From positions 5,257 to 69,256 of the forward strand of contig JAIRUP010000003.1 of NCBI GenBank assembly GCA_031254335.1: a DNA stretch of 64,000 nt, written 5' to 3'. Shown here piece by piece: positions 2,699 to 48,235 of this stretch. The position numbers were made by a program, and so were the translations under genes. This DNA comes from Rickettsiales bacterium. Its GTDB lineage: Bacteria; Pseudomonadota; Alphaproteobacteria; Rs-D84. The stretch's first letter is position 1. The number at the start of each line of letters is the position of its first letter. The notes beneath the pieces are model-generated. The model was not told the DNA's origin, made no database searches, and saw only the letters and a list, made by a program, of their open reading frames with translations.

Positions 2699-2811
2699 CA
2701 AAAAATCCAATCGCGGTTTTTCTTGGTCCTCGGCGATTTTCTCTCGAAAACGCGACCTCGCTAGGATTTTTAGAAATTTAATAAAATAGGAATAAAAAGA
2801 GGAGTTCAATC

Positions 2812-5800
2812 ATGAGCATGTTGCAGAAAATCTTCGGCCAAATCGAAACCAACGACCCGTTCGAGGCGTTGCGCATAACCGTCGCTTCGCCGGACGAAAT
2901 CAAATCGTGGTCCTTCGGCGAAGTCAAGAAGCCCGACACCATCGACTATCACTCGCTGCGCCCGGAGCCCGAGGGCCTTTTCTGCCAGCAGATTTTCGGA
3001 CCCACCAAGGACTATGAGTGCGCCTGCGGAAAATACAAGCGCATAAAGTTCCGCGGCGTCGTCTGCGAACGCTGCGGCGTCGAAGTCGGCGCGTCCTCCG
3101 TCCGCCGCGAACGCATGGGACACATCAAACTTATAACCCCCGTCGTCCACAACTGGTTCATGCGCGAAGGCAAAATCGCGACCCTTCTCAACAACATGCC
3201 CAACAAGAAGCTGGACCAGGTCGTGTCATACGACAATTACATCGTGTCCGAGCCGGGCCTTACCGACCTTAAACTTTACGATGTCATATCCGAGGACGAA
3301 TATCAGAAGAAAGTCGAAGAGTTCGGGGCCGACAGCTTCCGCGTCGGCATCGGAGCCGAGGGAATCCGCAACATCATAACCGCCCTTGACATGGTCGAAG
3401 AGCGCAACCGACTTCGCGCCGAGCTGGCCGACACCAAGTCCGATGTCAAAAGACGCGGCTTGCAAAAGCACCTGCGCCTGGTCGAGCAATTCGTTTCCAG
3501 CGGCGTCAATCCGTCCTGGATGATTATGGACACCATCCCCGTTCTGCCGCCCGAACTGCGCCCGCTGGTCCAGCTTGACGCGGGACATGTGGCGACGAGC
3601 GACCTCAACGACCTTTATCGCCGCGTCATCATCCGCAACAACCGCTTGAAGAAACTTATCGAAATGCGCGCGCCCGAAATCATAGTCCGCAACGAAAAGC
3701 GCATGCTGCAAGAGGCCGTCGACGCCTTGTTCGACAACAGCCACAAGCCACGCCCGATGGTTTCGCAGAACAAGCATATCCTTAAATCCCTGAGCGACTC
3801 GCTTCGCGGCAAGCAGGGCCGGTTCCGCATGAACCTGCTTGGCAAGCGCGTGGACTATTCCGGCCGCTCGGTCATCGTTTCCGGCCCGACGCTCCGCCTG
3901 CACCAGGTCGGTCTTCCCAAAATCATGGCCCTTGAACTGTTCCGCCTGTTCGTTTATGCCGAGCTTCTCGCCATGGACCACGCCAACACTTTGAAGACCG
4001 CAAAGAAGATGGTCGAAAACCAAGAGCCAATCGTTTGGGATATTTTACAGAAGGTCATTTACCAGCACCCGGTTCTTCTCAACCGCGCGCCGACGCTTCA
4101 CAAACTTTCCGTCCTTGCGTTCGAACCGATTCTCGTCGAAGGCAAAGCCATCCACCTTCATCCGCTTGTCTGCAAGGGCTTCAACGCCGACTTCGACGGC
4201 GACGCGATGGCCGTGCATGTGCCCATTTCGCTTGAAGCGCAGCTTGAAGCGCGCACCCTTATGCTTGCGTCAAACAATGTCCTTCACCCGGCCGACGGCG
4301 CGCCCGTAATCGTTCCGACGCAAGACATGGTGCTGGGCGTTTATTACATTTCGCTAGTCAACGGCGACTGGACGCAAAAATCCCCGCGCTTCGCCAATAT
4401 GGACGAAATCAAGATGGCCTTGGACAACAAGAGCATAGAGCTGCACACGCCAATCGTCGCGCGCTATGCCGAGGTCGCCTTGGACGGGACCGAATCAGTC
4501 AATTCCGTCAAGACAACCGCCGGACGCATGCTGCTTGGCGAGATGCTGCCGAAAAAACCCGGCATGTCGTTCGCCTTGGTCAACCAAGTCATGAGCAAGG
4601 GCAAAATCGAGGAGCTTCTCGCGTCCGCCTATGAATTCTGCGGCGACAAGGACATGATTATAATCGCCGACAAGCTCAAAAACATCGGATTCGAGCAGGC
4701 CGCCAAATCCGGCATATCCATAACCCAGGACGACATCCTTATTCCCGAAGGCAAGGCCAAGGCCATCGAGGCCGCGCGAAAGTCCGCCAGTGAAATCGAG
4801 AGCCAATACCAGAACGGACTTATATCCAACGGCGAACGATACAACAAAATCGTCGACATGTGGCAGAAGACGACCGAACATGTCGCCGCGCTGTCCTTCG
4901 AGACCATGGAAAAATCGTCGGCCGGCGGAAAATGGAACTCCATATCCATGATGGCCGATTCCGGCGCGCGCGGTTCCAAAACCCAAATCCGCCAGCTGGC
5001 CGGCATGCGCGGAGTCATGGCCAAGCCAAGCGGCGAAATTATCGAAGTCCCCATCATCTCGAACTTCAAGGAAGGACTCACCGTGTCCGAATACTTCACT
5101 TCGACCCACGGTTCCCGCAAAGGACTTTCCGACACCGCCATGAAGACCGCGGAAGCCGGATACCTGACGCGCCGACTTGTGTCCCTTGCCCAGAACATCG
5201 TCATAACCGAGGAAGACTGCGGAACGCACGAGTCCGTCGTCGAACGCGCAATCCACGACGGCGCGACCGTCGTCAAGACTTTGGGCAAAGTCGTCATGGG
5301 CCGATTCGCCGCGACGGATGTCAAAGACGCGTCAGGCAAGGTCATCGTCAAACGCAACGAGCTTATCACCAAGCAAGTCGCCAGCCGAATCGACGCCGCG
5401 GATATTAAGGAAATCGATGTGCGCAGCGTCCTTACCTGCGAATCCGACGGCCTTTGCGCCAAGTGCTATGGCAGCGACCTTTCCAAGGGAACCCAGGTTC
5501 AAATCGGCGAGGGCGTCGGAATCATCGCCGCCCAGGCCATCGGCGAACCGGGAACGCAGCTTACGCTCCGCACATTCCATGTCGGCGGAGTCGCCGTGTC
5601 CAGCGGCGGAGCCGACGGACAAATCGCAACGCCCGCCGCGGGAAAAGTCGAATTCGAGAATGTCGGAATCGCCGTCAATTCGAAGGGCCGAAACATCGTC
5701 ATGGGCCACAACGCCTATGCCAAAATCGGAAGCGCGCGGGTGAAGCTCCCTTATTCCGCCGAGCTGTTCGTCGCCGACGGCGCGGTCGTGGAAAAGGGCG

Positions 5801-6936
5801 CGAAGCTGGCCGAAGTCGACCCGTATTCGCGCGTCATTCTCGCAGAAAAATCCGGCAAGGCGGCATACCGCGACCTTATAGACAACATTTCCTATAAGGA
5901 GGAAGAGGACCCCGTATCCGGCGCCTCGTCGAAGAAAATCATCAACTGGAAGAACATTACCAAGAAATCCCTGAAACCGTCCATCGCCATCCTTGACGAG
6001 TCCGGCGAAATCATAACCAGCGGCAAAAACAAGCTGGAATACATGATGCCGATTTACGCCATACTCAACATCAACGACGGCGACGAAATCAAGGCCGGAG
6101 ATGTCATCGCCTGGATTCCCGTCGAAAACCAGAAGACCAAGGACATCACGGGCGGTCTTCCGCGCGTCGAGGAATTATTGGAAGCGCGAAACCTTAAAAA
6201 TCCCGCCGTGCTTGCCGACATCGACGGCGAAATCGAAATCGACGATTCGCACAAGTCCAAAATCATGGTTCGAATCCTTCCCGCAGACGCCGCCGAAAAA
6301 CCCGTCGAATACATGATTCCGAAGGGCTCCGGCATTCTTGTGCAGAACGGCGATATCGTCAAAAAATCCGATTTCATAGTCGGCGGCGATGTCGTGCCGG
6401 AAGACATTCTCCGCATTTCGGGGCGCAAGGCTTTGGCGACCTATATGGTGGAGCAAGTCCAACAGGTTTATAGGCTTCAAGGCGTGTCCATCAACAACAA
6501 GCACATGGAAATCATAATCCGCGAGATGATGCGCAAAGTCGAAATCACAGACCCGAAGGACACCAAATTCTCGTCCGGGCAGGAAGTGAACATCGGAACG
6601 CTTCGCGCGGAAAACAAGCGCGTCATCAGCGATGGCAAGAAGCCCGCCCTGTTCAAGCCGCGCCTGATGGGTATTTCCAAGCTGTCCCGCTCGTCCGACA
6701 GCTTTATCAGCAACGCCGCGTTCCAAGAGGTCACACGCGTGCTTACCGACGCCGCGATTCAGGGCCAGGTCGACAAGCTGGAAGGCCTTAACGAGAACCT
6801 GATTGTGGGCCGACTGATACCGCTTGGCACGGGAACCTATGTTCGCCGCGTGCGCGAAATCGCCGAGGCAGAAGAGGCAAGCGAGGTCGCCAAAATCGAA
6901 GAGGGCGTGCCGGAGCAGGGGACGCTGGACCTCTGA
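2812..6936 (+). CDS. rpoC: DNA-directed RNA polymerase subunit beta' (1374 aa)
   Basis: N-terminal Zn-finger region CACGKYKRIKFRGVVCERCGVEV; the NADFDGD catalytic motif is present; an aagaggag RBS lies 12 nt upstream of the ATG. Confidence 0.97.
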   Translation: MSMLQKIFGQIETNDPFEALRITVASPDEIKSWSFGEVKKPDTIDYHSLRPEPEGLFCQQIFGPTKDYECACGKYKRIKFRGVVCERCGVEVGASSVRRERMGHIKLITPVVHNWFMREGKIATLLNNMPNKKLDQVVSYDNYIVSEPGLTDLKLYDVISEDEYQKKVEEFGADSFRVGIGAEGIRNIITALDMVEERNRLRAELADTKSDVKRRGLQKHLRLVEQFVSSGVNPSWMIMDTIPVLPPELRPLVQLDAGHVATSDLNDLYRRVIIRNNRLKKLIEMRAPEIIVRNEKRMLQEAVDALFDNSHKPRPMVSQNKHILKSLSDSLRGKQGRFRMNLLGKRVDYSGRSVIVSGPTLRLHQVGLPKIMALELFRLFVYAELLAMDHANTLKTAKKMVENQEPIVWDILQKVIYQHPVLLNRAPTLHKLSVLAFEPILVEGKAIHLHPLVCKGFNADFDGDAMAVHVPISLEAQLEARTLMLASNNVLHPADGAPVIVPTQDMVLGVYYISLVNGDWTQKSPRFANMDEIKMALDNKSIELHTPIVARYAEVALDGTESVNSVKTTAGRMLLGEMLPKKPGMSFALVNQVMSKGKIEELLASAYEFCGDKDMIIIADKLKNIGFEQAAKSGISITQDDILIPEGKAKAIEAARKSASEIESQYQNGLISNGERYNKIVDMWQKTTEHVAALSFETMEKSSAGGKWNSISMMADSGARGSKTQIRQLAGMRGVMAKPSGEIIEVPIISNFKEGLTVSEYFTSTHGSRKGLSDTAMKTAEAGYLTRRLVSLAQNIVITEEDCGTHESVVERAIHDGATVVKTLGKVVMGRFAATDVKDASGKVIVKRNELITKQVASRIDAADIKEIDVRSVLTCESDGLCAKCYGSDLSKGTQVQIGEGVGIIAAQAIGEPGTQLTLRTFHVGGVAVSSGGADGQIATPAAGKVEFENVGIAVNSKGRNIVMGHNAYAKIGSARVKLPYSAELFVADGAVVEKGAKLAEVDPYSRVILAEKSGKAAYRDLIDNISYKEEEDPVSGASSKKIINWKNITKKSLKPSIAILDESGEIITSGKNKLEYMMPIYAILNINDGDEIKAGDVIAWIPVENQKTKDITGGLPRVEELLEARNLKNPAVLADIDGEIEIDDSHKSKIMVRILPADAAEKPVEYMIPKGSGILVQNGDIVKKSDFIVGGDVVPEDILRISGRKALATYMVEQVQQVYRLQGVSINNKHMEIIIREMMRKVEITDPKDTKFSSGQEVNIGTLRAENKRVISDGKKPALFKPRLMGISKLSRSSDSFISNAAFQEVTRVLTDAAIQGQVDKLEGLNENLIVGRLIPLGTGTYVRRVREIAEAEEASEVAKIEEGVPEQGTLDL

Positions 6937-6960
6937 TTTGGTCGTGCTATGACAAAAAAT

Positions 6961-6984
6961 CCCCCTTAATAAGGGGGATTTTTC
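6961..6984 (+). terminator. Rho-independent terminator after rpoC
   Basis: Hairpin ccccctt-aat-aaggggg followed by a T-run, 25 nt after the rpoC stop. Confidence 0.7.
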
Positions 6985-7035
6985 ATTTGAAAAATATTTA
7001 TGGCTTGTCTATAATAAATCGCAAAAGGGGATAAA

Positions 7036-8115
7036 ATGGCGACAGTCATAGCTATGTTCAATCATAAAGGCGGAGTAAGTAAAACCACTACCACATTTCA
7101 TTTGGGATGGAAATTGGCTCGTCTTGGAAAACGAGTATTGATTGTTGACGCCGACCCGCAATGCAATTTGACCGGACTTGCACTTGGAATAGAGGATTAC
7201 GACTCTTTATTCGGTTTTTATGACAGCCGCCGCAATAACGATATTTTTTCGGCACTCGCGCCCGTGTTCAATATGGGTAACGGTGAGGGCAATACAATAC
7301 AATCTTTCGGCGTTACGGATATAAAAGATAATGAAAATTTGAAACTGCTGGCCGGCCATGTAAGATTTGCAGAACTTGATATGCAGATTGCGACTGCTAT
7401 AACAAGTAGCGCTGGATTGCCGGTATTGCGAGAGCTAGTCGGAGCATTCAATAAACTTATTCGGGAGGCCGCACTGAGGATGGCGGCGGACATAGTCATA
7501 ATAGACATGAGTCCTAGCATATCCGCTACAAATATGTGCCTGTTGATGGGAAGCGACAATTTTATAGTTCCGACATCGCCGGATTTTTATTGTTATCAGG
7601 CTATAGATTCCCTTAGCGAGGTTTTCCCAAAGTGGGCGCGGACAATGTCCGAATTCAAGAATGGAGTGGTGTTGCCGAGAAATAATCCCAAGATGATGGG
7701 TCTAATATCCCAAAATTACAGGGTTTATACGACGGACCCTAATGCGGATAAAAAAACAATGACAGCTTCATATCAAAGATGGGCCGATAAAATAAAGAAG
7801 ATAACCAATGAAAAATTGGTCCCCTCGTTAAATACCCATAACATGGTTATATCAAAAGAAGTGTTTGAAAGAAATGTAAAATATGATTCACCATACAACT
7901 TGGCGAATATCCAAGACCTTAATACTCTTATAGCCATATCACAGCGTCTCTCCAAACCTGTGTTTGAAATAACTGAAAAAGAATACGGAAGCGGCACGGT
8001 TTGGGAACATAAGACGACCAATGACAAAATGGTTGGCGCAAAATACACGGTAGAAGAACTGGATAAAGTATATTCGGAAATGGGAAAAGCTATAATAGGA
8101 ATGATACAACCATAA
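7036..8115 (+). CDS. ParA/MinD-family ATPase, unusually long (359 aa), in an AT-rich islet
   Basis: Deviant Walker A NHKGGVSKTTT; a VDADPQCNLT motif; about 100 aa of C-terminal extension beyond the canonical ParA size of roughly 255 aa; GC is clearly lower than the flanking rpoC; an aaagggga RBS is present. Confidence 0.8.
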   Translation: MATVIAMFNHKGGVSKTTTTFHLGWKLARLGKRVLIVDADPQCNLTGLALGIEDYDSLFGFYDSRRNNDIFSALAPVFNMGNGEGNTIQSFGVTDIKDNENLKLLAGHVRFAELDMQIATAITSSAGLPVLRELVGAFNKLIREAALRMAADIVIIDMSPSISATNMCLLMGSDNFIVPTSPDFYCYQAIDSLSEVFPKWARTMSEFKNGVVLPRNNPKMMGLISQNYRVYTTDPNADKKTMTASYQRWADKIKKITNEKLVPSLNTHNMVISKEVFERNVKYDSPYNLANIQDLNTLIAISQRLSKPVFEITEKEYGSGTVWEHKTTNDKMVGAKYTVEELDKVYSEMGKAIIGMIQP

Positions 8116-8125
8116 TAAAAAATGT

Positions 8126-8152
8126 GTCGCCGCGAAAGCGGCGACTTTCTTA
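8126..8152 (+). terminator. Hairpin terminator after the ParA-like gene; this is the first module of an E-family repeat
   Basis: gtcgccgc-gaaa-gcggcgac followed by tttctt; the same hairpin-plus-tail architecture recurs after lpxD at 16332. Confidence 0.55.
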
Positions 8153-8314
8153 TTACCTGGATGGGCGGGTTGGACCCGACCATGACATTTGATGATGAGG
8201 TCCCGCGGTCAAGCCGCGGGATGATAAAAACGGGGAGGTCAAGGGGAAAATCGGGCTTGAAAAATTTTCTAGGACGGGGAGGCGGCGGGGCGCGTTTTGT
8301 GGTATAATATACCT

Positions 8315-8839
8315 ATGCCGATATTCGATTCTTCAACTTCGCTGCTTTACTGTCCAGAGTGTCTTCAAAAGGACAGGGAACTTTACGAATCGGCACGAAA
8401 AATCGTTTATAAAGACAGCGGCATTATGCCCAAAATCGTTTCGGACACCACCAAAATCAACACACTTCCCCTGGACGCCGTTTTCTATTATCCAATCATG
8501 ACCACAAACAAGCACTGGTGGCTGAATCTTGTCGGCGCGGGAGATGTCAAACTTGTCGACAAACTCATCGTGTCCCCGGAATGCCAGCTGGCGGTCATCC
8601 GAAATGTCAGCGAATTCGAGACCAAAAAAGCGGGCAAGAAAAATCTAAGCGTTGGCGAAGTCAAAACCGCCAGCGCTTTTTTCAAAGTCGTTTCCAAAAA
8701 AATAACCTGCGTTCACGATATGATTGCGACCGGCAGCGGCACCGTCATGATTCTTTTCGGCGGGATTAACGAGGGGAAGCTGGCCGCCGCGTTACACGAC
8801 ACGGGCAATCAATATTACGGCGTCATCGGGTCTTATTAA
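8315..8839 (+). CDS. Hypothetical protein, about 175 aa, partner of the ParA-like gene
   Basis: ORF 8297..8839; a TGgTATAAT extended -10 overlaps the first codons, so the ATG at 8315 (MPIFDSS...) is the likely start; an N-terminal CPEC motif; no recognisable family. Confidence 0.5.
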   Translation: MPIFDSSTSLLYCPECLQKDRELYESARKIVYKDSGIMPKIVSDTTKINTLPLDAVFYYPIMTTNKHWWLNLVGAGDVKLVDKLIVSPECQLAVIRNVSEFETKKAGKKNLSVGEVKTASAFFKVVSKKITCVHDMIATGSGTVMILFGGINEGKLAAALHDTGNQYYGVIGSY

Positions 8840-9075
8840 TACGGACAAAAAATATAAGGCTGGTTTTTCAAAATCGGTCTATATTTCCGATTAACTGTGA
8901 AAAACCACCCGTCGCGGACCGCCAAGTCCAGACGCCGGGCGGTTTTTCTTGTTCCTCGAAAATCTATCCTCGATTTTGCGACCAGCCTAATATTTTTTGA
9001 GTTATTGAGCGGCGGTGGCCCGCACGCATTATGGATTTATACAATTTGAGATGCCGAGCTTCCTCGGCATGACGG

Positions 9076-9771
9076 CTAGGGTTGGGTCCAGGCGGGGGAT
9101 TTGACCGATTTTTCCAAGAATTCGTTCCAGGTTTTTAATTCCGCCTCGCTGGGCGGGAAATCGCGCGGTTCGCGGCCAGTCGTTTTCGGGATTTCCTTCA
9201 TCGCTTTCTCGAACCGCTCCTTTATCGAATCATAGCTTTCCATGTCCTGGGCGCGCGTCAATTCCAAATAGACCTGCGCCAGGATTTTCGAATCGACCAG
9301 CGCGCTATGCGCGAATTCGCGCTCCTTCAAACTTATATCGAACCATTTCGCCAGCGCGTCCAAGGAATACGACTTCGGCCCGAACACGCGGTTCCTTGCG
9401 AGGATAAGGCTGTCGCACTGACGCTCCCGCGGGACTTCGGGCAGGCCGCTTGCGCGCAGCTGGAAATTAAAGAACGGAAAGTCGAAGTCCTGGCCGTTAT
9501 GCGCCACAATCAGCGAGTCCTTGAAAAACTCCAACACCTTGGGCGCGATTTCCTTGAATTTGGGCTTCCCTTCCAGCGCGTGGTTGGAAATCTTATGGAC
9601 TTCATAGGCTTCCTTTGGAATCAATTTCCCTTCCGGGTTTATAAGCTCGTGCACATGCGCGCCGGTCAGTTTGCCGTCCAGGATTTCCACCGCCGCGATT
9701 TCGATTATCTTGTCCCCGTTCCGGTAATCGAAGCCCGTCGTTTCCGTATCGAAGCACACTATGCGAGACAT
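9076..9771 (-). CDS. dnaQ: DNA polymerase III epsilon subunit, 3'-5' exonuclease
   Basis: Exo I motif FDTETTG, Exo II HNGQDFDFPF and Exo III HSALVDSKILAQVY; an aaagggga RBS precedes the second ATG (MSRIV...). Confidence 0.9.
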   Translation of the reverse strand: MSRIVCFDTETTGFDYRNGDKIIEIAAVEILDGKLTGAHVHELINPEGKLIPKEAYEVHKISNHALEGKPKFKEIAPKVLEFFKDSLIVAHNGQDFDFPFFNFQLRASGLPEVPRERQCDSLILARNRVFGPKSYSLDALAKWFDISLKEREFAHSALVDSKILAQVYLELTRAQDMESYDSIKERFEKAMKEIPKTTGREPRDFPPSEAELKTWNEFLEKSVKSPAWTQP

Positions 9772-9871
9772 AATTTCCCCTTTCATTCCATGCGTATTTG
9801 CATTATATTTATTCAGAAATAATAATGCAAATAGTTATTACCTGGATTCCAGCTTTCGCTGGAATGACGGG

Positions 9872-12001
9872 GTGGAGCTGGCGGTGCAGGATTTATTGGA
9901 ATCTTTGAACGAGGGGCAGAGGCAGGCGGTTCTTACCACCGAGGGGCCTTTGCTTGTCCTAAGCGGCGCGGGGACAGGGAAGACCCGCGTGCTGACCACG
10001 CGCATAGCGCATATTTTGCAAAGCGGCTTGGCCGAGCCGTGGCAGATTCTCGCGCTTACCTTCACCAACAAGGCCGCCGGCGAAATGAAAACCCGGTTGC
10101 GCGGTTTGGTCGGAGATATGGTCGAGGGCGTTTGGATGGGGACTTTCCATTCCATAGGTTTGCGGATTCTGCGAGCGAACGCGCCGCTGGCGGGGCTTAA
10201 AAATCCCTTCGTCATCCTTAACGACGACGACCAGGAATCCGTCATAAAAAATATTCTGAAATCCATGAATCAGGACCCGAAGCAGGCGAGCGATATTGCC
10301 GGCAGGATTTCGCTTATGAAGGATACGGGACGAAACAGGCTGAACGAGTCCGAGCAGAAAGTTTTCGATGCATATCAGGCGGAATTGGAACGGATGAATG
10401 CCGTAGATTTTGGAGATTTGATTATAAAACCAATCAAGATGTTAATCGACAACCGCGATATTCTTAAAAAATATCAGCAACAATTCCTTTATGTGCTGGT
10501 GGACGAGTATCAGGACACCAACGCCTCGCAATATCAGCTTATGCGCCTGCTGGCAAGCGGGTCGGGAAATATTTGCTGCGTCGGCGACGACGACCAGTCA
10601 ATCTATTCCTGGCGCGGCTCGGAAGTCAAAAACATCCTGGGTTTTCAGAACGAATACAAGGGCGCGCAGGTCATTCGGCTTGAAAAAAACTATCGTTCGA
10701 CGCCCGAGATTCTCGGCGCGGCGAACAGCCTGATTAAAAACAACAAGGAACGCCTTGGGAAGAATTTGGAGGCGACCAAATCCGGCGGCGACAAGGTTCA
10801 AATAATCCGCGTTTGGAGCGACCTTGCGGAAGCGCAGGGGATTGCCGACGCCATTCAGGACATGGCGCGCGACGGCGAAAATTATTCCGATATGGCCGTA
10901 TTGATTAGAAGCGCGTCCTTGTCGCGACTTTTCGAAGAGGAATTTGTAAATCGCAAAATCCCATACAGACTTGTCGGCGGCACAAAGTTCTATGACCGCG
11001 CCGAAATCCGCGACGCAATCGCCTATGCGCGACTGCTGGCATATCCTTTCGACGATGTCGCCTTCGCGCGCATATTCAACACGCCGAAACGAAGCCTTGG
11101 CGACGCAGCTTTGGCCCAAGTCCGCGACTATGCCCGCGCGAACCATTTGTCTTTATTGGACGCGCTTCATTCCATGCCTTTGCCACCGCGCATGGCGAAA
11201 GGCGCGGCAGAATTCGCAAAGATTTTCTCCGAGGCGCGCGACATGGCGGACAGCGCGCCGCCCGCCGAAGTTTTCCAGGCTTTGCTGGACCGCGCGGGTT
11301 ATATCAAAATGTGGAACGAATCAAAAGAGCTTGACGCAAAGGAACGACTTGACCGAATCCGCGATTTAATCGGGACGCTTAAAGACGGGTATTCTTCATT
11401 GGAAGATTTCCTTGAACAGGTCGCGCTTTACACCAGCAACGACGAAGACGGCGTTTCCGGCGACGCCGTGTCCGTCATGACCATGCACGCCGCAAAGGGT
11501 TTGGAATTCAAGAATGTTTTTCTGCCGGCTTGGGAAGAGGGAATTTTTCCGAACGAGCGCGCTTTGGGCGAATTCGGAGCGGCGGCTTTGGAAGAAGAGC
11601 GGCGATTGGCTTATGTCGCCATCACGCGCGCGATTAGGCGCGCGGTCATTTCCCTGTCGGGTTCGCGCCTTTTGTTCGGGCAGCGGATTAATCCCAGGCC
11701 CAGCATGTTCATCGACGAGATAGAGGAAAGGTTTGCGGATAGGGTCGGGTTTAACAAAGGATATATACAATCTGAGATGCCGACCGACGCCCGCATGGCA
11801 CCCCCCACCGAAAAATCGCGCGGCGATTTTTCGACTTTCCCGCAAGGGGGGAGTTCCCCCTTTATCGGCCGGATGGTCGCGCACGAGGAATTGGGCAGGG
11901 GCGTCGTTATTCAATTAGACGGAGATATTGCGACCGTCGCCTTCCGGGACGCCGGGATGAAGAAGGTCAAGGTCGAGTTTTTGGAATTCGATAAAAAATA
12001 A
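9872..12001 (+). CDS. uvrD: UvrD/Rep-family ATP-dependent DNA helicase
   Basis: LLESLNEGQRQAV followed by the GAGTGKT Walker A; DEYQDTN; a helicase C-terminal region. The start is uncertain: the ORF track opens at 9761, but a B-family repeat lies in-frame at 9843..9870, so GTG 9872 is proposed. Confidence 0.85.
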   Translation: MELAVQDLLESLNEGQRQAVLTTEGPLLVLSGAGTGKTRVLTTRIAHILQSGLAEPWQILALTFTNKAAGEMKTRLRGLVGDMVEGVWMGTFHSIGLRILRANAPLAGLKNPFVILNDDDQESVIKNILKSMNQDPKQASDIAGRISLMKDTGRNRLNESEQKVFDAYQAELERMNAVDFGDLIIKPIKMLIDNRDILKKYQQQFLYVLVDEYQDTNASQYQLMRLLASGSGNICCVGDDDQSIYSWRGSEVKNILGFQNEYKGAQVIRLEKNYRSTPEILGAANSLIKNNKERLGKNLEATKSGGDKVQIIRVWSDLAEAQGIADAIQDMARDGENYSDMAVLIRSASLSRLFEEEFVNRKIPYRLVGGTKFYDRAEIRDAIAYARLLAYPFDDVAFARIFNTPKRSLGDAALAQVRDYARANHLSLLDALHSMPLPPRMAKGAAEFAKIFSEARDMADSAPPAEVFQALLDRAGYIKMWNESKELDAKERLDRIRDLIGTLKDGYSSLEDFLEQVALYTSNDEDGVSGDAVSVMTMHAAKGLEFKNVFLPAWEEGIFPNERALGEFGAAALEEERRLAYVAITRAIRRAVISLSGSRLLFGQRINPRPSMFIDEIEERFADRVGFNKGYIQSEMPTDARMAPPTEKSRGDFSTFPQGGSSPFIGRMVAHEELGRGVVIQLDGDIATVAFRDAGMKKVKVEFLEFDKK

Positions 12002-12996: not shown

Positions 12997-13050
12997 GACC
13001 CCCCACCAAAACCGCTTTGCGGTTTTGGCTCCCCCGCAAGGGGGGAGCTG
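12997..13050. repeat. C-family palindromic repeat (gaccccccacc...hairpin...cccccgcaaggggggag)
   Basis: Identical termini recur at 21988, 30011, 32374, 39928, 41368, 47712, 56285 and 62989, and in the composite copies at 46805, 53330 and 59902. Confidence 0.85.
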
Positions 13051-13056
13051 ATTTTA

Positions 13057-13707
13057 TTATTTTACTTTCAGGTTGAACTTGGTGGCTTTCTTGTCAAGCG
13101 CGGCTATGATTTCGTTCGTTATATCAAGCCCCGGCGCTTTGCTGACCACGCGGGTGAACCTGGCGTCCATTATAAGGTCCAGGCCTTTCTTCGCCGCGAG
13201 CGCGTCGATTACAGGGTCCAGATGCTTTTCCTGGATTTCAAGCAGCGCAGCTTGGAACGAAGCGTCGATGGCCTGGGCGCGCTCGGCTATTTCCTTTTGG
13301 AATTCGCCGACCGTTCTTTGGTATTCCACCACGCGCTGCTGCAACGCTTCGCGCGACAGGATTCCCTGCTGGCTTTCGATGGCTTTCTTTTCCGATTCCA
13401 ATTTCTTCTGCTTCCTTTCAAGGTCCGACTTCAAGTCGCTTTCCAGGCTTTCGCGCTGTTTCCGCAAATCCGCCAGGATTTTCGCGCTCTTTTGGATGTC
13501 GTCCATTCTGACGACCGCTATGCGCAGGTCCGCCGCAGACACCGAGAGCGCGGACGCGTCCGCCACCGCATGCTCGGCCGAGATGTTGCGCTTCATGCCG
13601 CCGATGGCGAAGACGCCAATCCCCGCCGCGACCACCGCGACCGCAGCCGCGATTATAACTATTTTTTTGCTTTTGCCTTTCTGTTTAACAGGTGCTTGGT
13701 TTGCCAT
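13057..13707 (-). CDS. skp: Skp/OmpH-family periplasmic chaperone
   Basis: N-terminal anchor or signal, then a long coiled-coil (K/E/Q-rich) typical of OmpH; ends ...KKATKFNLKVK; the start is taken at MANQAPVKQK. Confidence 0.75.
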   Translation of the reverse strand: MANQAPVKQKGKSKKIVIIAAAVAVVAAGIGVFAIGGMKRNISAEHAVADASALSVSAADLRIAVVRMDDIQKSAKILADLRKQRESLESDLKSDLERKQKKLESEKKAIESQQGILSREALQQRVVEYQRTVGEFQKEIAERAQAIDASFQAALLEIQEKHLDPVIDALAAKKGLDLIMDARFTRVVSKAPGLDITNEIIAALDKKATKFNLKVK

Positions 13708-14955: not shown

Positions 14956-15140
14956 GGACAAAAAATAAGCGGACAAAAAACATGGCGGACTTTTCCGTTC
15001 GCCGGGTCAAATCACCCACTACCTTCGCAAACCCGACGCGCCGCGGACCGCCAAGTCCAGACGGCGGTCGGGTTTGCTTGGTATTGCGCGATTTCCCCTC
15101 GGCGTCGTGAGTCCGCCGATGTTTTTTGAGTTATTTACCT

Positions 15141-16321: not shown

Positions 16322-16331
16322 TAATTAGGAA

Positions 16332-16358
16332 TCGGCCGCGAAAGCGGCCGATTTTCTT
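16332..16358 (+). terminator. Hairpin terminator after lpxD; first module of an E-family repeat
   Basis: cggccgc-gaaa-gcggccg followed by attttctt; the remainder of the element (...attacctagatggtcgggtcggagcccgaacatgaca) matches 8153..8190. Confidence 0.55.
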
Positions 16359-16402
16359 ATTACCTAGATGGTCGGGTCGGAGCCCGAACATGACAAGATG
16401 TT

Positions 16403-18063: not shown

Positions 18064-20331
18064 ATGAATAAATTCGCTTTTGCGATTTTTGCCGCGCTTA
18101 CTCTTTCTGCGCCGGTTTTCGCCGCGTCGCCGCGCGTCGCGCCTTCAAGTCCTGAACGAGCTTCGCCGCGCGCCGAGACAAGGGCCGCCGCAAGCCGCGC
18201 CGCCGCGCCAATCACGAGTCCCGCCGCCGCCCGCGTCGCCGCGTCAAACCGCGCCCCCGCCGCCGCACGGCCCACAAACATTTCCCGCGCCGCAGTCGTT
18301 CAATCGCCCATCGCCGCGACGCACTCCGCCGCGACGGTCAGCCGCGCCGCCGCAATTTCCCGCAGCGCGACCGTTCGCGGACACGCCAATCCCGCCGCCG
18401 CGCGCGCCGCGACAAACCGCGGACGACAAATCGGAAAACTCGGCGCGCCGATTGACGGACGCCGCATCGGCCGAGCCGCCGAAGCCGCCGCCAGCGATTA
18501 CGGAGCCTGCAAGGATTCATACTCGGAATGCATGGACCAGTTCTGCGCCAACGCCAGCGACACTTACAAAAAGTGCATTTGTTCCGACAAATACCTGGAC
18601 CTGGCCGCGCAAAAGGAAGCCCTTGAATCCGCCGAGAACTCCTTGCAGGATTTCGGCGCGATGAACCTTAACATGATTCAGATGACCGAGAGAGAAGTCA
18701 ACGCCGTGCTTGAAGGGACCGAAGGCGAGCGAGCAGCCGAGGGAAAGACCGACGAATCCGCAAACGCCCAAAAACTCAACGACATCCTGGGCAGCCTTGG
18801 CGCGGGCAACGCCGGTAAAAAATCCAGCAAACTGGATTCGCTTGGCGGCACTACATTCTCGATGGATGTGGACGATATTTGGAGCGGCGGGTCCGCCACC
18901 GAAGGCGCCGTCGGCGAGAATGTTCGAGGCCGCGCGCTTTTCACCGCCGTCAACGGACAATGCCAGCAGATGACCAAGGAAACCTGCAAGGGAACCAACA
19001 TCGCCATGGTCGTTTCCGCTTATTCACTTACGGTGGACGCCGACTGCCAGAAGTTCCAAGCCGCAATCGACAAGATGCGCCAGGGACTTAAAGACAAAAT
19101 CCGCGAGGCCAACCTTGCCATGATGAACGAACGCCTGTCCGACTTTGAAAACAGGAATTCCCAAACGGCGGTGGAATGCCTTGGCAATGTCCTGAACGAT
19201 TTCCGCACCGACGCCGTCTGCGGCGCGAACTGGGGACGGTGCCTGGACTTCACCGGCCAATTCATCAACCAGCAGGGCGAGCCGATTTACACCGAAAAAT
19301 TCGCCGACGAACAGACCGGAATAACCAGCCTTCTGACCTTCGGCAGCGGAAACCAGACCCTTCTTGAAGCCAACGCCAGCAGCAAGTTCGTCGAATTCCT
19401 TCAAGGCAAGAAAAACTTCGCCGGAGATTCCCTTAGAAAATGCGAGCAGGAGGCCGATGTCGTCTGGAAGGAATCCCTTTCCCGCGCGCTTATGGAAATC
19501 ATTCAGGCGCAGGCGCGCAAAGTCGAGGAAGTCAAAGACAACTGCCTGACCAAACTTGTCGAATGCAACGAGAAGCAGTCGAGCGAGATGTCGAAAATCA
19601 CAGAGGGCGGAACCAAGGAAAAAACCGCGACCGAAAAAGGCGTGGAAGTCAAAACCCAGGCCGGAAGCCTTGCCGGGCTTGAATCATGCAAGGACATTCA
19701 GCGCGCCTGCGAGGCCATTTACGGCGGAGACGACGGACTTCTCAAAGGCCTGCTTCTCGACCGACAGAGCGCGCTTCAAGTCCGATACTGCGAGGACGAA
19801 AAGGGCGGACACTGGCACCAGCCAGACAGCTCCAAGGAAGGCGTTTGCATAATGAACCAAGTCGATTGCGAAAAAGCCGGCTTGTATTGGATTGACCGCG
19901 AAGGCGCGCTCAACGAATTCCAGCAGCGCGCGCGCGACACATTCCGCGCACAAAAGAAAGAGGTCGACGCCGACCCGGAATGGAGGGGACCGATTCCGCG
20001 CGCCTGCGTTTCGTTCGATTATTACTGCGGAAACTTCGAGGCCGCGACCGCCAAGGCGTCGACGCCTTCGGAGGGCGACATCAAGAACGGAAACATTTGC
20101 AACGCCCCCAACAGAGAGCAATGCGAAAAGTTCGGCTTCCCGTGGATTGGAAACAAATGCGTTCGAAACAAATACGACTGCGACGCAGGCGGCAAGGGAA
20201 TCGTTTGGTATAAGGGCCGATGCTGGCTTTCCGACGAGGCCAGCAAGAGAATCTGCGAGGACATCGGCGGGAAGCCCGACGGTATCAACAAGATTTGCAA
20301 CATAGCGATAACGCACAGGAAACCAAAGTAG
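18064..20331 (+). CDS. Large secreted Cys-rich protein, paralog 1 (755 aa)
   Basis: Signal peptide MNKFAFAIFAALTLSAPVFAAS; about 120 aa of Ala/Arg/Pro/Ser-rich low-complexity sequence; then a Cys-rich region with C-x6-C-MDxxCAN-x6-C-x-CS and a VCGxNxxRCxDxTGQF motif shared with the ORF at 27396. Confidence 0.8.
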   Translation: MNKFAFAIFAALTLSAPVFAASPRVAPSSPERASPRAETRAAASRAAAPITSPAAARVAASNRAPAAARPTNISRAAVVQSPIAATHSAATVSRAAAISRSATVRGHANPAAARAATNRGRQIGKLGAPIDGRRIGRAAEAAASDYGACKDSYSECMDQFCANASDTYKKCICSDKYLDLAAQKEALESAENSLQDFGAMNLNMIQMTEREVNAVLEGTEGERAAEGKTDESANAQKLNDILGSLGAGNAGKKSSKLDSLGGTTFSMDVDDIWSGGSATEGAVGENVRGRALFTAVNGQCQQMTKETCKGTNIAMVVSAYSLTVDADCQKFQAAIDKMRQGLKDKIREANLAMMNERLSDFENRNSQTAVECLGNVLNDFRTDAVCGANWGRCLDFTGQFINQQGEPIYTEKFADEQTGITSLLTFGSGNQTLLEANASSKFVEFLQGKKNFAGDSLRKCEQEADVVWKESLSRALMEIIQAQARKVEEVKDNCLTKLVECNEKQSSEMSKITEGGTKEKTATEKGVEVKTQAGSLAGLESCKDIQRACEAIYGGDDGLLKGLLLDRQSALQVRYCEDEKGGHWHQPDSSKEGVCIMNQVDCEKAGLYWIDREGALNEFQQRARDTFRAQKKEVDADPEWRGPIPRACVSFDYYCGNFEAATAKASTPSEGDIKNGNICNAPNREQCEKFGFPWIGNKCVRNKYDCDAGGKGIVWYKGRCWLSDEASKRICEDIGGKPDGINKICNIAITHRKPK

Positions 20332-20336
20332 AAGAC

Positions 20337-20612
20337 ATGGCGAAACAGGCAAGACATTTTCTCAGCGTATTCGGCGGCCTTATCGTCGCAATGCTTTGCG
20401 TCGGCGAATCCCGCGCGGCCGACGCCTTCCCGAAAATATACGCGAACAAAATAATCTACGATTTCGCCGCCCTTGTGAACTGCCACGAGCGCGAAGGCGT
20501 CAAGGATATAAAGAGCTGTCTGAACTTCGACGACTATATGTCGCAATCGCAGCAGAAATGCGCGGACTACGGATGGCCCACTTCCGGCCCCAACGCATGC
20601 TACGGATACTGA
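20337..20612 (+). CDS. Small secreted Cys-containing protein (91 aa) just downstream of paralog 1
   Basis: Signal peptide (FLSVFGGLIVAMLCVGESRA); 4 Cys; 5-nt intergenic gap to the preceding gene. Confidence 0.5.
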   Translation: MAKQARHFLSVFGGLIVAMLCVGESRAADAFPKIYANKIIYDFAALVNCHEREGVKDIKSCLNFDDYMSQSQQKCADYGWPTSGPNACYGY

Positions 20613-20980
20613 AAAAAATCCAAGTTCGGTATTTCAAAATCGGTCTATATTTCCGATTAACTGCGAAAAACCGCCCGGCGCGGACACCTCAGTCCAGACG
20701 CCGGGCGGTTTTTCTTGTTCCTCGAAAATCTACCCTCGATTTTGCGACCGAACTACGGATTTTTTAGTTTATTAAATTATCCTCGGTGTCGCGACCCGGC
20801 TAATGTTTTTTGAGTTTATTAAATTATCCATCGAAATTGCGTTTCCGCTAAGGATTTTTTAGCTTTATTAAGCGGCGGTGGCCCGCACGCTTTGCGGCCG
20901 AGATTCTCCGGTCAAGCCGGGGAATGACAATTGATTTTTTACAATTTGAGATGCCGAGCTTCCTCGGCATGACAAAAGGA
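20612..20980. repeat. Composite intergenic repeat mosaic (D-family terminator element with a tandem sub-repeat, then an A and a B element)
   Basis: The D core aaaaaccgcccggcgcggac...gtccagacgccgggcggtttttcttgttcctcgaaaatct...tcgattttgcgacc recurs at 2699, 8840, 14950, 27148, 34540, 37430, 56140 and 58712; it is followed here by gccgagattctccggtcaagccggggaatgacaa (A) and atgccgagcttcctcggcatgaca (B). Confidence 0.85.
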
Positions 20981-21006
20981 AAAACCCGGCTTTCGCCGGG
21001 TTTTTT
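20981..21006. terminator. Bidirectional hairpin terminator serving the minus-strand FKBP gene
   Basis: cccggc-tttc-gccggg flanked by an A-run and a T-run. Confidence 0.6.
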
Positions 21007-21008
21007 AT

Positions 21009-21338
21009 TTATTTCACTTGTTTCAAGGATACTTTGAATGTTGCTGGTTTGCCCGCAAGCTCCGGATAATAATTCGCGGGAAAAGTTATATTTATATTCT
21101 TCGTATCCCCGGGGCGCATGCCCACGATTTGCGATTCGAACCCCGGCACAAACGCGTTGCTGCCAAGCATAAGCGGATACGATTCGCCCCGCCCGCCCGC
21201 GAATTCCTGGCCGTTCATCGAGCCCACGAAGTCGATAATAACCGTGTCGCCCATTTGCGCAGGGCGAGCTTCGCTGTCGCTGCACGCGAACAGCGCCGCG
21301 GTCATACCGATTATTCCGAATGCTTTCAATTTCTTCAT
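21009..21338 (-). CDS. FKBP-type peptidyl-prolyl cis-trans isomerase lipoprotein
   Basis: Lipobox LFACS; FKBP domain GDTVIIDFVGSMNGQEFAGG...LGSNAFVPGFESQIVGMRPGD. Confidence 0.75.
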   Translation of the reverse strand: MKKLKAFGIIGMTAALFACSDSEARPAQMGDTVIIDFVGSMNGQEFAGGRGESYPLMLGSNAFVPGFESQIVGMRPGDTKNINITFPANYYPELAGKPATFKVSLKQVK

Positions 21339-21586
21339 GCGCGTTTCTCCTTTCCTTTTCCTTCGGGTTCATTATGCAATTTTATGAGGGGGCGGGGCAA
21401 GGGAAAAAGGAAGAAGGGCGGAGTCACCAAAGGCGACGGATTATTACCTGCTAACGCAGGATTTATTACTGGATTCCAGCTTTCGCTGGCATGACGGCGG
21501 AGAGAAGGTTCGCTTTTGCGGCTGGTCGGGTTCGAAACTTACAAATGCGCAAATTAAAAATGGTCCAGAAGGACCATTTTCTAATT

Positions 21587-22339: not shown

Positions 22340-22503
22340 AGTTCGCATCCTTTTAATGAGATTGATAAGAATATATCCGACTTGGTGAAAAGTCAAGGTG
22401 AAAAAGGGCGAAAAAAGGAAGAAGTAAGAAGGAAGAAGGCAGAAGGGCGGATAGGATAGTTTTTTGATTGATTTAATATTATATATGGGTTAGGCTGGGC
22501 CGC

Positions 22504-25929: not shown

Positions 25930-27147
25930 ATGACGATAGGGGACATATTCAAGGAATCGTGGATTTCCATCGCGGGAAACAAGACCCGAACATTCCTTAC
26001 CGTTTTGGGAATCATAATCGGCGTCATGGCCGTCGTCATCATGGTCGCCGTCGGCGAGACCGTGCAGAAACAAATCGACGACCAATTCTCGGCCCTTGGG
26101 TCCAACACCATCGTAATCCGCCCCGCCCAAGTTCAGACCGCCGGAGTGCGCCAGGGAAACCGCATGACCCTTACCATTCAAGACGCCGAAGTTTTGCGCC
26201 GGCTGCCCGAGATAACCGCCCTTACGCCGCAGCAATCTTCCAGCGCGCAGATTGTTTTCGGAAACAAAAACTGGCCAGCCCAGATGATGGGCGTTTGGCC
26301 AGACTATCTTGCCGTCAACGGCGCGGAGGTCGAGCAGGGCGCGTTCTTCGACATGTCCGCCGTCCGCAATTCATCCGCCGTCGCCGTTTTGGGCCCCAAG
26401 ATTGTGCGCGAGCTTGATATGGGCGATTACCCCATCGGACAAGTCATTCGAATTTCCAATGTTCCCTTCGTCGTAATCGGCGTCTTGAAATCCCGCGGCG
26501 AAAGTTTCGGCGGGAACACCGACGAGTCCGTCATCATTCCTTTCAGCACGCTTAAAAAACGCTTCGCGGGCCGGTATTTTCAAGATTCCGTTCAGGCCAT
26601 TGCTTTGAAAACAATTTCAGGCTCGGACAACGATGTCGTTATCGAGCAGATTACCGCGATTCTCCGCGACCGCCACAAGCTGAAAGACGACCAGCAGGAC
26701 GATTTCCAGATTATGAACATGAAGCAGGTCATGGACACCCTTAACACCGTAACAGGCTTTATGAAGATGCTGTTAATCGCCATCGCGTCGGTGTCCCTTT
26801 TGGTCGGCTCCATCGGAATCATGAACATGATGCTGGTGTCCGTCATGGAGCGCACGCGCGAAATCGGCATCCGAAAAGCCGTCGGAGCAAAAGAACGGCA
26901 CATCATGATTCAATTCCTTGCAGAGTCCATCATGATTTCCAGCATGGGAAGTTTTATAGGTTTGCTGTCGGGGGTTGTAATCACGCAGGGCGTCGGGCGG
27001 TTCGTTCTTGGGTTCCCCGTTCCCGTGAGTTTATGGTCGGTTATCATTTCCGTCGTCGTAGCTTTGGTAGTCGGTATTGCGTCCGGCGTGTTTCCAGCGA
27101 TTAAGGCGACGAAGCTGAATCCGATTGATTCGTTAAGGTATGAATAA
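25930..27147 (+). CDS. ABC transporter permease, FtsX/MacB family
   Basis: N-terminal TM, a large periplasmic domain, and a C-terminal FtsX-like 3-TM bundle (ERTREIGIRKAVGA). Confidence 0.85.
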   Translation: MTIGDIFKESWISIAGNKTRTFLTVLGIIIGVMAVVIMVAVGETVQKQIDDQFSALGSNTIVIRPAQVQTAGVRQGNRMTLTIQDAEVLRRLPEITALTPQQSSSAQIVFGNKNWPAQMMGVWPDYLAVNGAEVEQGAFFDMSAVRNSSAVAVLGPKIVRELDMGDYPIGQVIRISNVPFVVIGVLKSRGESFGGNTDESVIIPFSTLKKRFAGRYFQDSVQAIALKTISGSDNDVVIEQITAILRDRHKLKDDQQDDFQIMNMKQVMDTLNTVTGFMKMLLIAIASVSLLVGSIGIMNMMLVSVMERTREIGIRKAVGAKERHIMIQFLAESIMISSMGSFIGLLSGVVITQGVGRFVLGFPVPVSLWSVIISVVVALVVGIASGVFPAIKATKLNPIDSLRYE

Positions 27148-27335
27148 AAAATAAAGGCCGGTTTTTCGTTTTCGCGCCTAATACCCGAATGACACTTCGA
27201 AAAATCGCCCGTCGCGGACTTAGGTGTCCAGACGCCGGGCAATTTTTCTTGGTCCTCGGGCATTATTCATCGAAAACGCGACCGGCCTAATATTTTTTAT
27301 AGCTTATTAATGTTCTTGTTTAGAATATTGGGAAA

Positions 27336-29786: not shown

Positions 29787-29812
29787 TAGAAAGAAATTAA
29801 GGACGAAAAAAT

Positions 29813-29837
29813 CCCCCGGAAACGGGGGTTTTGTTTT
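29813..29837 (+). terminator. Rho-independent terminator after secreted paralog 2
   Basis: cccccg-gaaa-cggggg followed by ttttgtttt. Confidence 0.7.
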
Positions 29838-30074
29838 AAGTCGCCCCGAGGGGGGCGGTTTTTTTATTCCCACCCCGGCCCGCCTTCGTCTACGACTACG
29901 GCGCGGCGACTCCTCCCAAGAGGGGAATTTAATAAGGATTTATACAATGGACCCCGGCCTTCGCCGGGGTGACTGGTTGGGAAAGGCTCTGCGTAGGGGC
30001 GATGGGTTTTCGACCCCCCACCAAAAACGGCGAAGCCGTTTTTGGCTCCCCCGCATGGGGGGGAGCTAACCTTA

Positions 30075-34518: not shown

Positions 34519-34741
34519 GCTTGCATTATAATTACGGAATGACAAAAAATCCAAGCGCAATTTTTCGTTTTCGGCCTAAATCTCCGAATGACACGGCGAA
34601 AAACCGACACGCCGCGGCGGCGCATAAGGCCAGCGTCGGTCGGTTTTTCTTGGTCCTCGGCGATTTATTCTCGAAAACGCGATTGCGCCAAGGATTTTTT
34701 GGGATTATTTAGTGATTGACAAAATGTTTTATTAAGGTATT

Positions 34742-37425: not shown

Positions 37426-37600
37426 GAAAGACAAAAAATAAAATGGGCGTTTTTCGTTTTCGCGTCTAATCGCCGAATGACGCTTCGAAAAACCGACGCG
37501 CCGCGGCGGCGTTACAGGCCAACGGCGGTCGGTTTTTCTTGGTCCTCGGACGATTATCCATCGAAAACGCGACGCCAATAATTATTTTTTGAGCTTATTT

Positions 37601-41367: not shown

Positions 41368-41423
41368 AACCCCCCACCGAAATTTTCATTGAAAATTTCG
41401 ACTCCCCCGCAAGGGGGGAGTTA
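41368..41423. repeat. C-family palindromic repeat between acpP and fabF
   Basis: aaccccccaccgaaattttcattgaaaatttcgactcccccgcaaggggggagtt. Confidence 0.8.
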
Positions 41424-41432
41424 ATTTATTTT

Positions 41433-48188: not shown

Positions 48189-48235
48189 ACCTTATATGAC
48201 GAAAAATCCAATCTCGGTTTTTCGAGTTTTATTTA

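Follow-up and report, generated by a model that had tools for sequence, protein, structure and literature searches.

The window analyzed here is a 64-kb stretch of contig JAIRUP010000003.1 from a Rickettsiales bacterium (assembly GCA_031254335.1), and ~150 kb of sequence from its clade was examined. Its RpoC relatives are a clade of termite-gut metagenome-assembled genomes (MAGs) that carry the NCBI label "Rickettsiales bacterium", with RpoC identities of 91% for locus L001 (Coa324_bin6), 80% for L002 (Nl494_bin11) and 66-67% for L003 and L056. The window contains housekeeping genes only. Intergenic DNA makes up 10.8% of it, and at least 31% of the intergenic bases match another spacer, as judged within these 64 kb of the genome. 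We are concerned here with one of the repeat families in these spacers, the palindromic D family, and in particular with the copy behind a gene for a 130-aa protein (20220-20612, + strand) that is conserved in L001. The TGA stop codon of this gene lies at 20610-20612 (+ strand), and the A-run of the focal D copy begins at its last base. Seven full D copies, two short forms and one fragment were found in the window, on the + strand throughout, together with two orphan arm modules and two minimal terminators built on the D frame (GACAAAAAATCC...GGATTTTT in both):

2697-2782, + strand: short D in the rpoB-rpoC spacer, without the inner 5' arm and the central terminator; its junction lies at the GGTTTTTC direct repeat
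6949-6985, + strand: minimal terminator with the D frame (ATGACAAAAAATCC-CCCTTAATAAGGG-GGATTTTTC), located after rpoC, where a full D stands in L002
8842-9009, + strand: full D copy after the gene at 8297-8839, 86% identical to the focal copy
14957-15137, + strand: full D copy after a TPR gene (unit 14971-15137, head duplicated at 14957, with GGACAAAAAAT present twice)
20611-20775, + strand: full D copy, the focal one (nhmmer E = 5e-45)
20777-20822 and 20822-20871, + strand: two orphan 3'-arm modules, with boxes CCCGGC and TTTCCGC that do not pair with the resident 5' arm
27140-27310, + strand: full D copy after a MacB-like permease gene, at the end of an efflux operon
29803-29840, + strand: minimal terminator with the D frame (GGACGAAAAAATCCCCCGGAAACGGGGGTTTTG)
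34538-34712, + strand: full D copy in the divergent spacer between a recF-like gene (- strand) and rmlC (+ strand), with no co-oriented upstream gene
37427-37600, + strand: full D copy after the gene at 36493-37425
48196-48226, + strand: D 5'-arm fragment between ftsW and mraY (both - strand), antisense to both
56137-56224, + strand: short D with arms forming a perfect 19-bp palindrome, without the central terminator
58711-58879, + strand: full but decayed D copy after an IMPDH-family gene

A profile built from seven copies (A1, mean column identity 75%) recovered all seven full copies from the window in an nhmmer search, each on the + strand and with E values of 1e-41 to 1e-47. It also matched one short form (2713-2774) and the 5' part of the other (56137-56187), as well as the modules at 20777-20871 and, weakly, the fragment at 48196-48226. 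Profile matches on the - strand were merely the mirror image of the palindrome. The D sites were sorted into families by a repeat search of the window. A 46-column degenerate D pattern matched six times where 0.00 matches were expected, and two diagnostic motifs occurred three and five times against 0.31 and 0.01 expected, the more frequent being GACGCCGGGCGGTTTTTCTTG; a chance origin of the D matches is excluded. Identity among the copies of this genome is 65-86%. A D copy on the + strand lies wherever the initial annotation had placed one, including the truncated copy that it had seen between rpoB and rpoC, now delimited as the short form at 2697-2782. Its list was nevertheless incomplete, since the fragment at 48196-48226 and the minimal terminators at 6949-6985 and 29803-29840 had been overlooked, as had three general features of the family: covariation across the whole hairpin, a polarity to one strand regardless of gene direction, and turnover between relatives.

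Each D unit is one rod-like imperfect hairpin of ~160 nt, formed by two arms that pair on one strand. The units measure 160-170 nt, somewhat more than the ~150 bp first estimated, and what had been described as a long-loop hairpin is instead a single rod in which the supposed loop consists of an internal loop and a 4-bp apical stem (GGAC/GTCC). An A-run behind the stop codon opens the rod and a T-run closes it. The 5' head, which is (A)TAAGGAC or AATGAC and includes a stop codon of its own, is followed by AAAAAAT, a variable box of 6-8 nt, and TTTTTCG with 5 variable nt. Inward of this 5' arm come a conserved internal-loop region and then the central hairpin, GAAAAACC-(GC stem)-GGTTTTTC, after which the 3' arm reads CTTGGTCCTCG...TCG-N5-GCGA-box-TAAT-TTTTTT and ends in a GAG(T)TTATTA tail (GAGTTTATTA-type). 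In a flank-inclusive alignment of 19 copies, the ends of the unit are GACAAAAAAT ... ATTTTTTGAGTTATTA. In the focal copy, the 5' arm extends to ~20663 and the central hairpin occupies 20665-20713 (+ strand; GAAAAACCGCCCGGCG...CGCCGGGCGGTTTTTC, then TTGTTCCT; A-tract, GC stem and T-tract; -39.0 kcal/mol), while the 3' arm ends at 20775 and includes the T-run and a GAGTTTATTA-type tail. All full copies in the window and in L002 share a common fold of -55 to -89 kcal/mol. For the focal copy, the folding energy is -71.7 kcal/mol when computed as RNA (z = -9.6) and -46.6 kcal/mol when computed as DNA (z = -9.9).

The rod is conserved in structure more than in sequence. In the alignment of 19 D copies from the window, L002 and four metagenome contigs, 31 of the 42 consensus pairs show compensatory changes on both sides; for example, GGCTGG/CCAGCC in one copy is replaced by GTTCGG/CCGAAC or GGCCGG/CCGGCC in others. 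Cells of the alignment are paired in 91.7% of cases, compared with 74.0% in shuffles and 36-59% when the partners are slid, and none of 500 shuffles matched any of the observed covariation measures. A set of 10 copies from two genomes gave a similar picture, with double changes at 27 of 41 consensus pairs. Complementarity extends to the inner arms, as expected of a REPIN-type hairpin: the window copies carry CCGAATGACACTTCG, and its exact complement, CGAAGTGTCATTCGG, is found in L001. A local hairpin of the repetitive extragenic palindromic (REP) type within the 5' arm (TTCGG..CCGAA) was considered and rejected, as it forms in some window copies only and clashes with the better-supported long-range pairing, which is CGTTTTCG/CGAAAACG in some copies and CAAAATCG/CGATTTTG in others.

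Double changes occupy 140 cells of the alignment and one-sided changes only 17, and the copy at 56154-56200 has become a perfect 19-bp palindrome, whereas all other copies keep a CGCGA bulge. Both observations suggest that sequence is copied from arm to arm at the DNA level. If so, the covariation proves a conserved hairpin but not an RNA function, and in general compensatory changes in palindromic DNA repeats do not by themselves demonstrate a functional RNA.

The family is strictly polar. We identified 26 D copies on seven contigs, 10 in the window, one short copy in L001, three full copies in L002 and 12 on four contigs (L092, L094, L118 and L136) of the termite-gut metagenome Ga0123356, and in all 26 cases the copies are co-oriented within their contig. 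This holds even where the adjacent genes point the other way. For example, three D copies in L136 adjoin parB, parA and mreB on the opposite strand (Pfam-confirmed), and in the window the copy at 34538 stands in a divergent spacer and the fragment at 48196 between two - strand genes. In L001, the ortholog of the gene upstream of the focal copy is inverted relative to rpoC, and the repeats in its 3' spacer, among which there is no D, keep the orientation of rpoC. The other repeat families behave in the same way. REP-like hairpins with an ATGAC end have strand ratios of 17:2 in the window, 13:0 in L001 and 5:0 in L002, are absent from the distant relatives, and share the strand of D in the metagenome contigs; a C-rich family has a ratio of 9:0 in the window. 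No inverted inter-copy pairs were found among the repeats, and high-scoring segment pairs between intergenic regions numbered 99 on the same strand and four on opposite strands. The orientation of D thus tracks the chromosome strand, not the neighbouring gene.

In L136 (Ga0123356_10006580), D copies occupy the spacers of a region in which parA-parB, mreB, rsmG (gidB) and mnmG (gidA) are unusually ordered and oriented, and which may lie near the origin of replication. There is no flip of polarity within the 11.7 kb of this contig.

Relative to genes, 19-20 of the 26 D copies begin 0-15 nt past the stop codon of a co-oriented long open reading frame (ORF), and in several of them the stop codon of the gene is the TAA of the D head itself; at least five of the 26 are not next to such a stop. 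The terminator-like hairpin and T-run described in the initial annotation are present in every full unit, as a GC-rich stem of -15 to -39 kcal/mol with a T-rich tail. Over all 19 aligned copies, the energies of the central hairpins lie between -14.9 and -39.0 kcal/mol, and each hairpin has a T-rich tail behind it (for example TTTTTCTT or TTTTCCTT), which is the shape of an intrinsic terminator. With an A-tract on one side and a T-tract on the other, the central hairpin is symmetric and resembles a bidirectional intrinsic terminator, so copies antisense to a gene could still terminate its transcription. D copies at gene ends probably act as the terminator of the gene. Such a centre would fit both the persistence of copies at gene ends and its loss from the intra-operon copy between rpoB and rpoC, which has no central hairpin.

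The position behind genes bears on a first alternative, namely that D is an RNA element selected by the host, a family of structured terminators or stabilisers in 3' untranslated regions that were spread by ordinary duplication and recombination. We consider this unlikely. It would account for the start of 19-20 of the 26 copies just past a co-oriented stop codon, for the strong covariation, for the terminator shape of the central hairpin, and for the excess of G.T over A.C (36 versus 15) in the consensus pairs of the sense strand. As evidence for RNA, however, this last asymmetry is mixed, since the antisense strand folds at least as well, indeed better, in 15 of the 19 copies. An RNA element would not be expected to take its orientation from the chromosome strand, and five copies (three in L136 and two in the window) are antisense or unlinked to a co-oriented upstream gene. 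Nor is there an RNA-level rationale for orphan 3' arms and duplicated heads, one-sided changes of the G.U type are rare (17 against 140 double changes), and orthologous sites differ between close relatives. Moreover, a working central terminator would leave the 3' arm untranscribed, and the outer rod could not then be selected in RNA.

Differences at orthologous sites were seen at three places. The rpoB-rpoC spacer is 113 nt long in the window, with a short D (2699-2811), 62 nt in L001, with a single C-rich repeat (9937-10000), and 333 nt in L002, with a D head, a REP and several C-rich repeats (9662-9995); in the distant relatives it is 12-100 nt and contains none of these repeats. After rpoC, the window has the minimal D-frame hairpin, L002 a full D with an orphan arm, and L001 an unrelated terminator. 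After the gene at 8297-8839, a long D in the window corresponds to a short D in L001. Judging from these sites, D copies have been gained, lost or truncated between close relatives. A TAAAAAG repeat flanks the rpoB-rpoC inserts of L001 and L002, and this may be a coincidence with an A-rich spacer of the ribosome-binding site. As a general insertion target, "GAC" fits the D heads and the REP tails, and it was rejected because the C-rich repeats are preceded by GA, TAA, TTA or AGT.

The sequences of the short forms point rather to an origin by deletion. The copy at 2697-2782 equals the long form minus the segment between two GGTTTTTC direct repeats, and the short form of L001 keeps CGAAGTGTCATTCGG, the exact complement of the inner 5' arm of the window copies. 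The extra modules behind the focal copy had been taken for an internal tandem duplication. Tandem Repeats Finder detected no tandem repeat over 20500-21100, and the three 3'-arm modules are 64-77% alike, with different variable boxes; by sequence, the modules at 20777-20871 are orphan 3' arms and not a recent duplication. Such orphan arms follow six of the 19 copies. The repeats are modular and mosaic, as the initial annotation had noted, with one type of central hairpin combined with differing types of arm. Its further suggestion of nested, successive waves of element-into-element insertion was not demonstrated; the short forms look like deletion derivatives, and the extra modules are orphan 3' arms rather than nested inserts.

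Orphan arms and mosaics bring up a second alternative, one that dispenses with any transposase: the palindromes would stall replication forks, and template-switching and gene conversion would paste arms or whole units beside terminators with A- and T-runs. The orphan 3' arm at 14281 in L002, which is identical at 29 of 32 positions to the 3' arm of another copy ~4.5 kb away, would be a natural product of such events. So would the copy turned into a perfect palindrome, the short form bounded by the GGTTTTTC direct repeat, the mosaic combinations of central-hairpin and arm types, and the D frame shared with the minimal terminators. Alone, however, this process leaves unexplained how D arrived at new loci beside unrelated genes and why a strict polarity is common to unrelated REP-like families, and no direct evidence for it was obtained. 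We regard it as distinctly unlikely.

That the repeats are not limited to the window is evident from the D copies on other contigs. Their distribution is narrow all the same. No D was found in the more distant relatives L003, L056 and L004, in 1.1 Mb of loci from other taxa, or in plasmid and phage collections. In an Rfam search of the window, only tRNAs passed the gathering threshold and no family matched D; at E <= 5, nothing covered D except sub-threshold matches to hairpins resembling miRNA precursors. Strict D patterns had no match in genome contigs or metagenome contigs. A looser 3'-arm pattern hit 80 loci, of which only the four Ga0123356 contigs are true D carriers; another contig of this metagenome, L114, was rejected because its hit is a chance match within coding sequence. 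Among the sequences searched, D occurs only in a single clade of uncultured Alphaproteobacteria from termite guts, and it could serve as a marker of that clade.

An independent assembly, the 5.5-kb Logan contig L071 (SRR14710927), is 100% identical to positions 2745-8222 of the window, with one end inside a D 3' arm and the other inside a REP-like hairpin. Breaks at such places are expected for multi-copy repeats, and both kinds of repeat fragment short-read assemblies of these MAGs. Two MAG contigs labelled Muribaculaceae/Bacteroidales, L004 and L050, encode RpoC proteins that are 63-66% identical to that of the window lineage and closer to it than any betaproteobacterial match, which suggests that their bins are contaminated or mislabelled.

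A third alternative is a classical miniature inverted-repeat transposable element (MITE), bounded by terminal inverted repeats and mobilised in double-stranded form by a DDE transposase, in the manner of Correia, RUP or ERIC-type elements. The Correia elements of Neisseria (CREE/NEMIS) and the ERIC/IRU elements of enterobacteria are intergenic palindromic repeats, 100-160 nt long, that share a transcript with the genes beside them and are found in either orientation. The terminal inverted repeats of Correia elements are conserved and 26 bp long and are accompanied by a TA duplication; these elements can function as terminators, as promoters or as targets of RNase III. D is alike in being a palindromic unit of ~160 nt in intergenic DNA that folds into a long hairpin, in having inverted ends (5' TAAGGAC-A6-T and 3' A-T6-GAG-TTATTA), and in breaking short-read assemblies. 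It is unlike them in that the terminal repeats vary, with compensatory changes, in that no consistent target-site duplication accompanies the 19 copies of the flank-inclusive alignment, and in that 26 of 26 copies are co-oriented, which would be unexpected for double-stranded cut-and-paste. No DDE transposase was seen in the window. We consider a MITE of this kind very improbable.

We lean towards the view that D is a new family of non-autonomous palindromic repeats, REPIN- or MITE-like in kind, that spreads in a strand-specific manner and is retained at gene ends. In the mechanism that we propose, a strand-specific process would copy D from a folded single strand, and the likeliest agent would be a hypothetical HUH/Y1 transposase, of the REP-associated tyrosine transposase (RAYT) or the IS200/IS605 type, acting at the replication fork. 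Strand-specific copying at forks would explain why D and the other families have one orientation, whatever the direction of the genes. Insertion of IS200/IS605 elements has an orientation bias that is set by the lagging-strand template, and a one-strand polarity that ignores gene direction is a reported hallmark of single-strand transposition of this type (PMC5027513). Selection would then filter the sites, such that copies survive past stop codons at the ends of transcription units, and where read-through is needed, as in the rpoB-rpoC spacer, only a derivative lacking the central hairpin would persist. The complementarity of the arms would be kept in part by arm-to-arm copying of DNA. If this is true, the lineage would offer a compact natural example of small palindromic repeats with a strict polarity relative to the chromosome strand. 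It would then be a good system for testing REP/REPIN-like copying at replication forks, and would allow a test of whether selfish hairpins turn into host terminators.

Several observations weigh against this proposal. There is no transposase of any kind in the 64-kb window, and none was seen in the related loci; no RAYT was found in the window or in the ~150 kb of the clade that was covered, and no tnpA or tnpB was seen. RAYT genes are usually single-copy. The D copies are diverged, at 65-86% identity, unlike a recent burst or typical REPIN populations. The REP-like singlets of the window differ in sequence from the D arms, and the local REP-like hairpin of the 5' arm is not conserved across D copies. 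Neither a consistent target-site duplication nor a clean pair of empty and filled sites was found, and the ends of D are set by where similarity stops. The antisense strand folds better in 15 of 19 copies (-83.2 versus -71.7 kcal/mol in the focal copy), and termination is predicted from shape alone. Finally, the GC skew at third codon positions, read on the + strand, is -0.229 for + strand genes and -0.019 for - strand genes, the + strand being C-rich both ways. As a guide to the lagging strand this conflicts with the presence of rpoBC and the ribosomal-protein genes on the + strand: either rpoBC would be head-on to replication or the skew rule fails here. The direction of replication was not taken from the skew, since it contradicts gene orientation.

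A bolder version, which we hold only tentatively and think doubtful, is that D copies are portable gene-end cassettes: self-folding single-stranded DNA with its own stop codon and a bidirectional terminator, serving as the standard end of a transcription unit in this lineage. If so, copying at the fork with one polarity would deliver a TAAGGAC or ATGAC head that supplies the stop. Taken together with the co-oriented REP-like, C-rich and polypurine families and the in-frame repeat copies in murG and a proS-like gene, this would mean that the non-coding DNA of the genome, and some of its coding DNA, is largely written by one strand-specific copier.

D is a new family within a known kind, the bacterial palindromic interspersed repeats, and has an unusually strict polarity and an embedded terminator-like centre. 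REPINs, which are hairpin-forming REP doublets mobilised by RAYT transposases, are long hairpins in which compensatory changes are frequent, and, like D, they are extragenic and multi-copy imperfect hairpins with two inverted arms around a spacer (Bertels & Rainey 2011, PMC3116915). Conserved blocks alternate in both with stretches where only complementarity is kept, and both have been proposed to be handled as single-stranded DNA. D is larger (~160 nt, as against ~70-110 nt), has a terminator-like central hairpin, keeps all copies on one strand, and is far more diverged within a genome; in addition, the REP singlets of the window (with a GGTCAAGCC or CTTC loop and an ATGAC end) are not D arms, as they would be in a REPIN system. 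The REP/BIME sequences of E. coli are imperfect palindromes of 30-40 nt with a conserved tetranucleotide 5' of the foot (PMC3333891); D, at 160-170 nt, does not fit this description, but the small co-resident hairpins do when read on the - strand. IS200/IS605 elements and their miniature derivatives also depend on folded hairpins rather than terminal inverted repeats, although those of IS200/IS605 are two separate subterminal hairpins with cleavage tetranucleotides, whereas D is one rod.

Like an intrinsic, bidirectional terminator, D has an A-tract, a GC-rich stem-loop and a T-tract at its centre and usually stands just past a stop codon, and the rod as a whole is flanked by an A-run and a T-run, as in Rho-independent terminators. 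Ordinary terminators, however, are unique sequences of 30-50 nt, whereas the centre of D is embedded in a conserved repeat of 160 nt, which has a covarying outer stem (~40 bp) and also occurs where no co-oriented gene ends. There is a further likeness to the attC sites of integrons, which are imperfect palindromes (60-140 nt) at the 3' ends of genes, conserved in structure over sequence, uniform in orientation and folded as single strands. We rejected this identity, as D has no RYYYAAC / GTTRRRY core sites and there is neither a cassette array nor an integrase to be seen. Unlike attC sites, D copies are dispersed behind housekeeping genes (the TPR, macB-like and IMPDH-family genes, and rpoC in L002) and in the rpoB-rpoC spacer.

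Other repeats lie downstream of the focal copy, up to 21008, and elsewhere in the window:

20871-20890, + strand: linker AGCGGCGGTGGCCCGCACGC, with an exact twin at 9008-9027 and a variant with a 1-nt deletion at ~58877
20896-20975, + strand: two REP-like hairpin units with ATGAC ends, of the GGTCAAGCC-loop type and the GAGATGCCGAG...CTCGGCATGAC type
20978-21008, no strand assigned: AAAAACCCGGCTTTCGCCGGGTTTTTT hairpin adjoining the stop codon of a convergent - strand gene
8119-8190, + strand: E unit after a ParA-like gene (terminator hairpin, TTTCTTATTACC, CGGGT..ACCCG hairpin, CATGACA end)
16325-16397, + strand: E unit after lpxD
21400-21417, 22405-22450, 49340-49367 and 53271-53298, all + strand: polypurine motif (AAGGAAGAAGTAAGAAGG and variants)
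12999-13058, 30014-30062, 39930-39990 and 41370-41431, + strand: C-rich repeat (CCCCCCACC, A/T-flanked hairpin, CTCCCCCGCAAGGGGGGAG)
56288-56345 and 62981-63042, + strand: C-rich repeat
47712-47773, + strand: C-rich repeat inside ftsW, the ORF of which stays open

The linker had been said to follow D frequently, which is too strong, as it follows three of the seven full copies, two of them exactly and one as the variant. The E units are found after the ParA gene and lpxD as first described, and the polypurine motif is present at the three loci named earlier and at an extra one, 21400. The polypurine loci lie upstream of gene starts or directly past a stop codon.

The REP-like hairpins have stems of 8-9 bp, TCAAG or CTTC loops and an ATGAC(A/G) end. 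They occur throughout the window and in L001, L002, L092, L094 and L136, often abutting the stop codons of - strand genes, and when read on the - strand they show the classical REP layout, with GTCAT followed by the palindrome.

A composite hairpin repeat of 135 nt, with a C-rich head, three hairpins and a GGGGGGAGTT tail, occurs three times, at 46810-46944, 53315-53449 and 59908-60042. The copy at 53315-53449 is intergenic, whereas the other two, which are 93% identical, lie in frame inside two essential - strand genes, murG (46810-46944) and a proS-like gene (59908-60042), adding ~45 residues to each (...AGEDG.RNHAGRHDFPSEQNPRIFNSVDSLS...). In MurG, the insert falls between the residues aligning to positions 33 and 55 of solved MurG structures. 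In this respect the repeat resembles the Rickettsia palindromic elements. It is antisense to both genes and has the + polarity of the other repeats.

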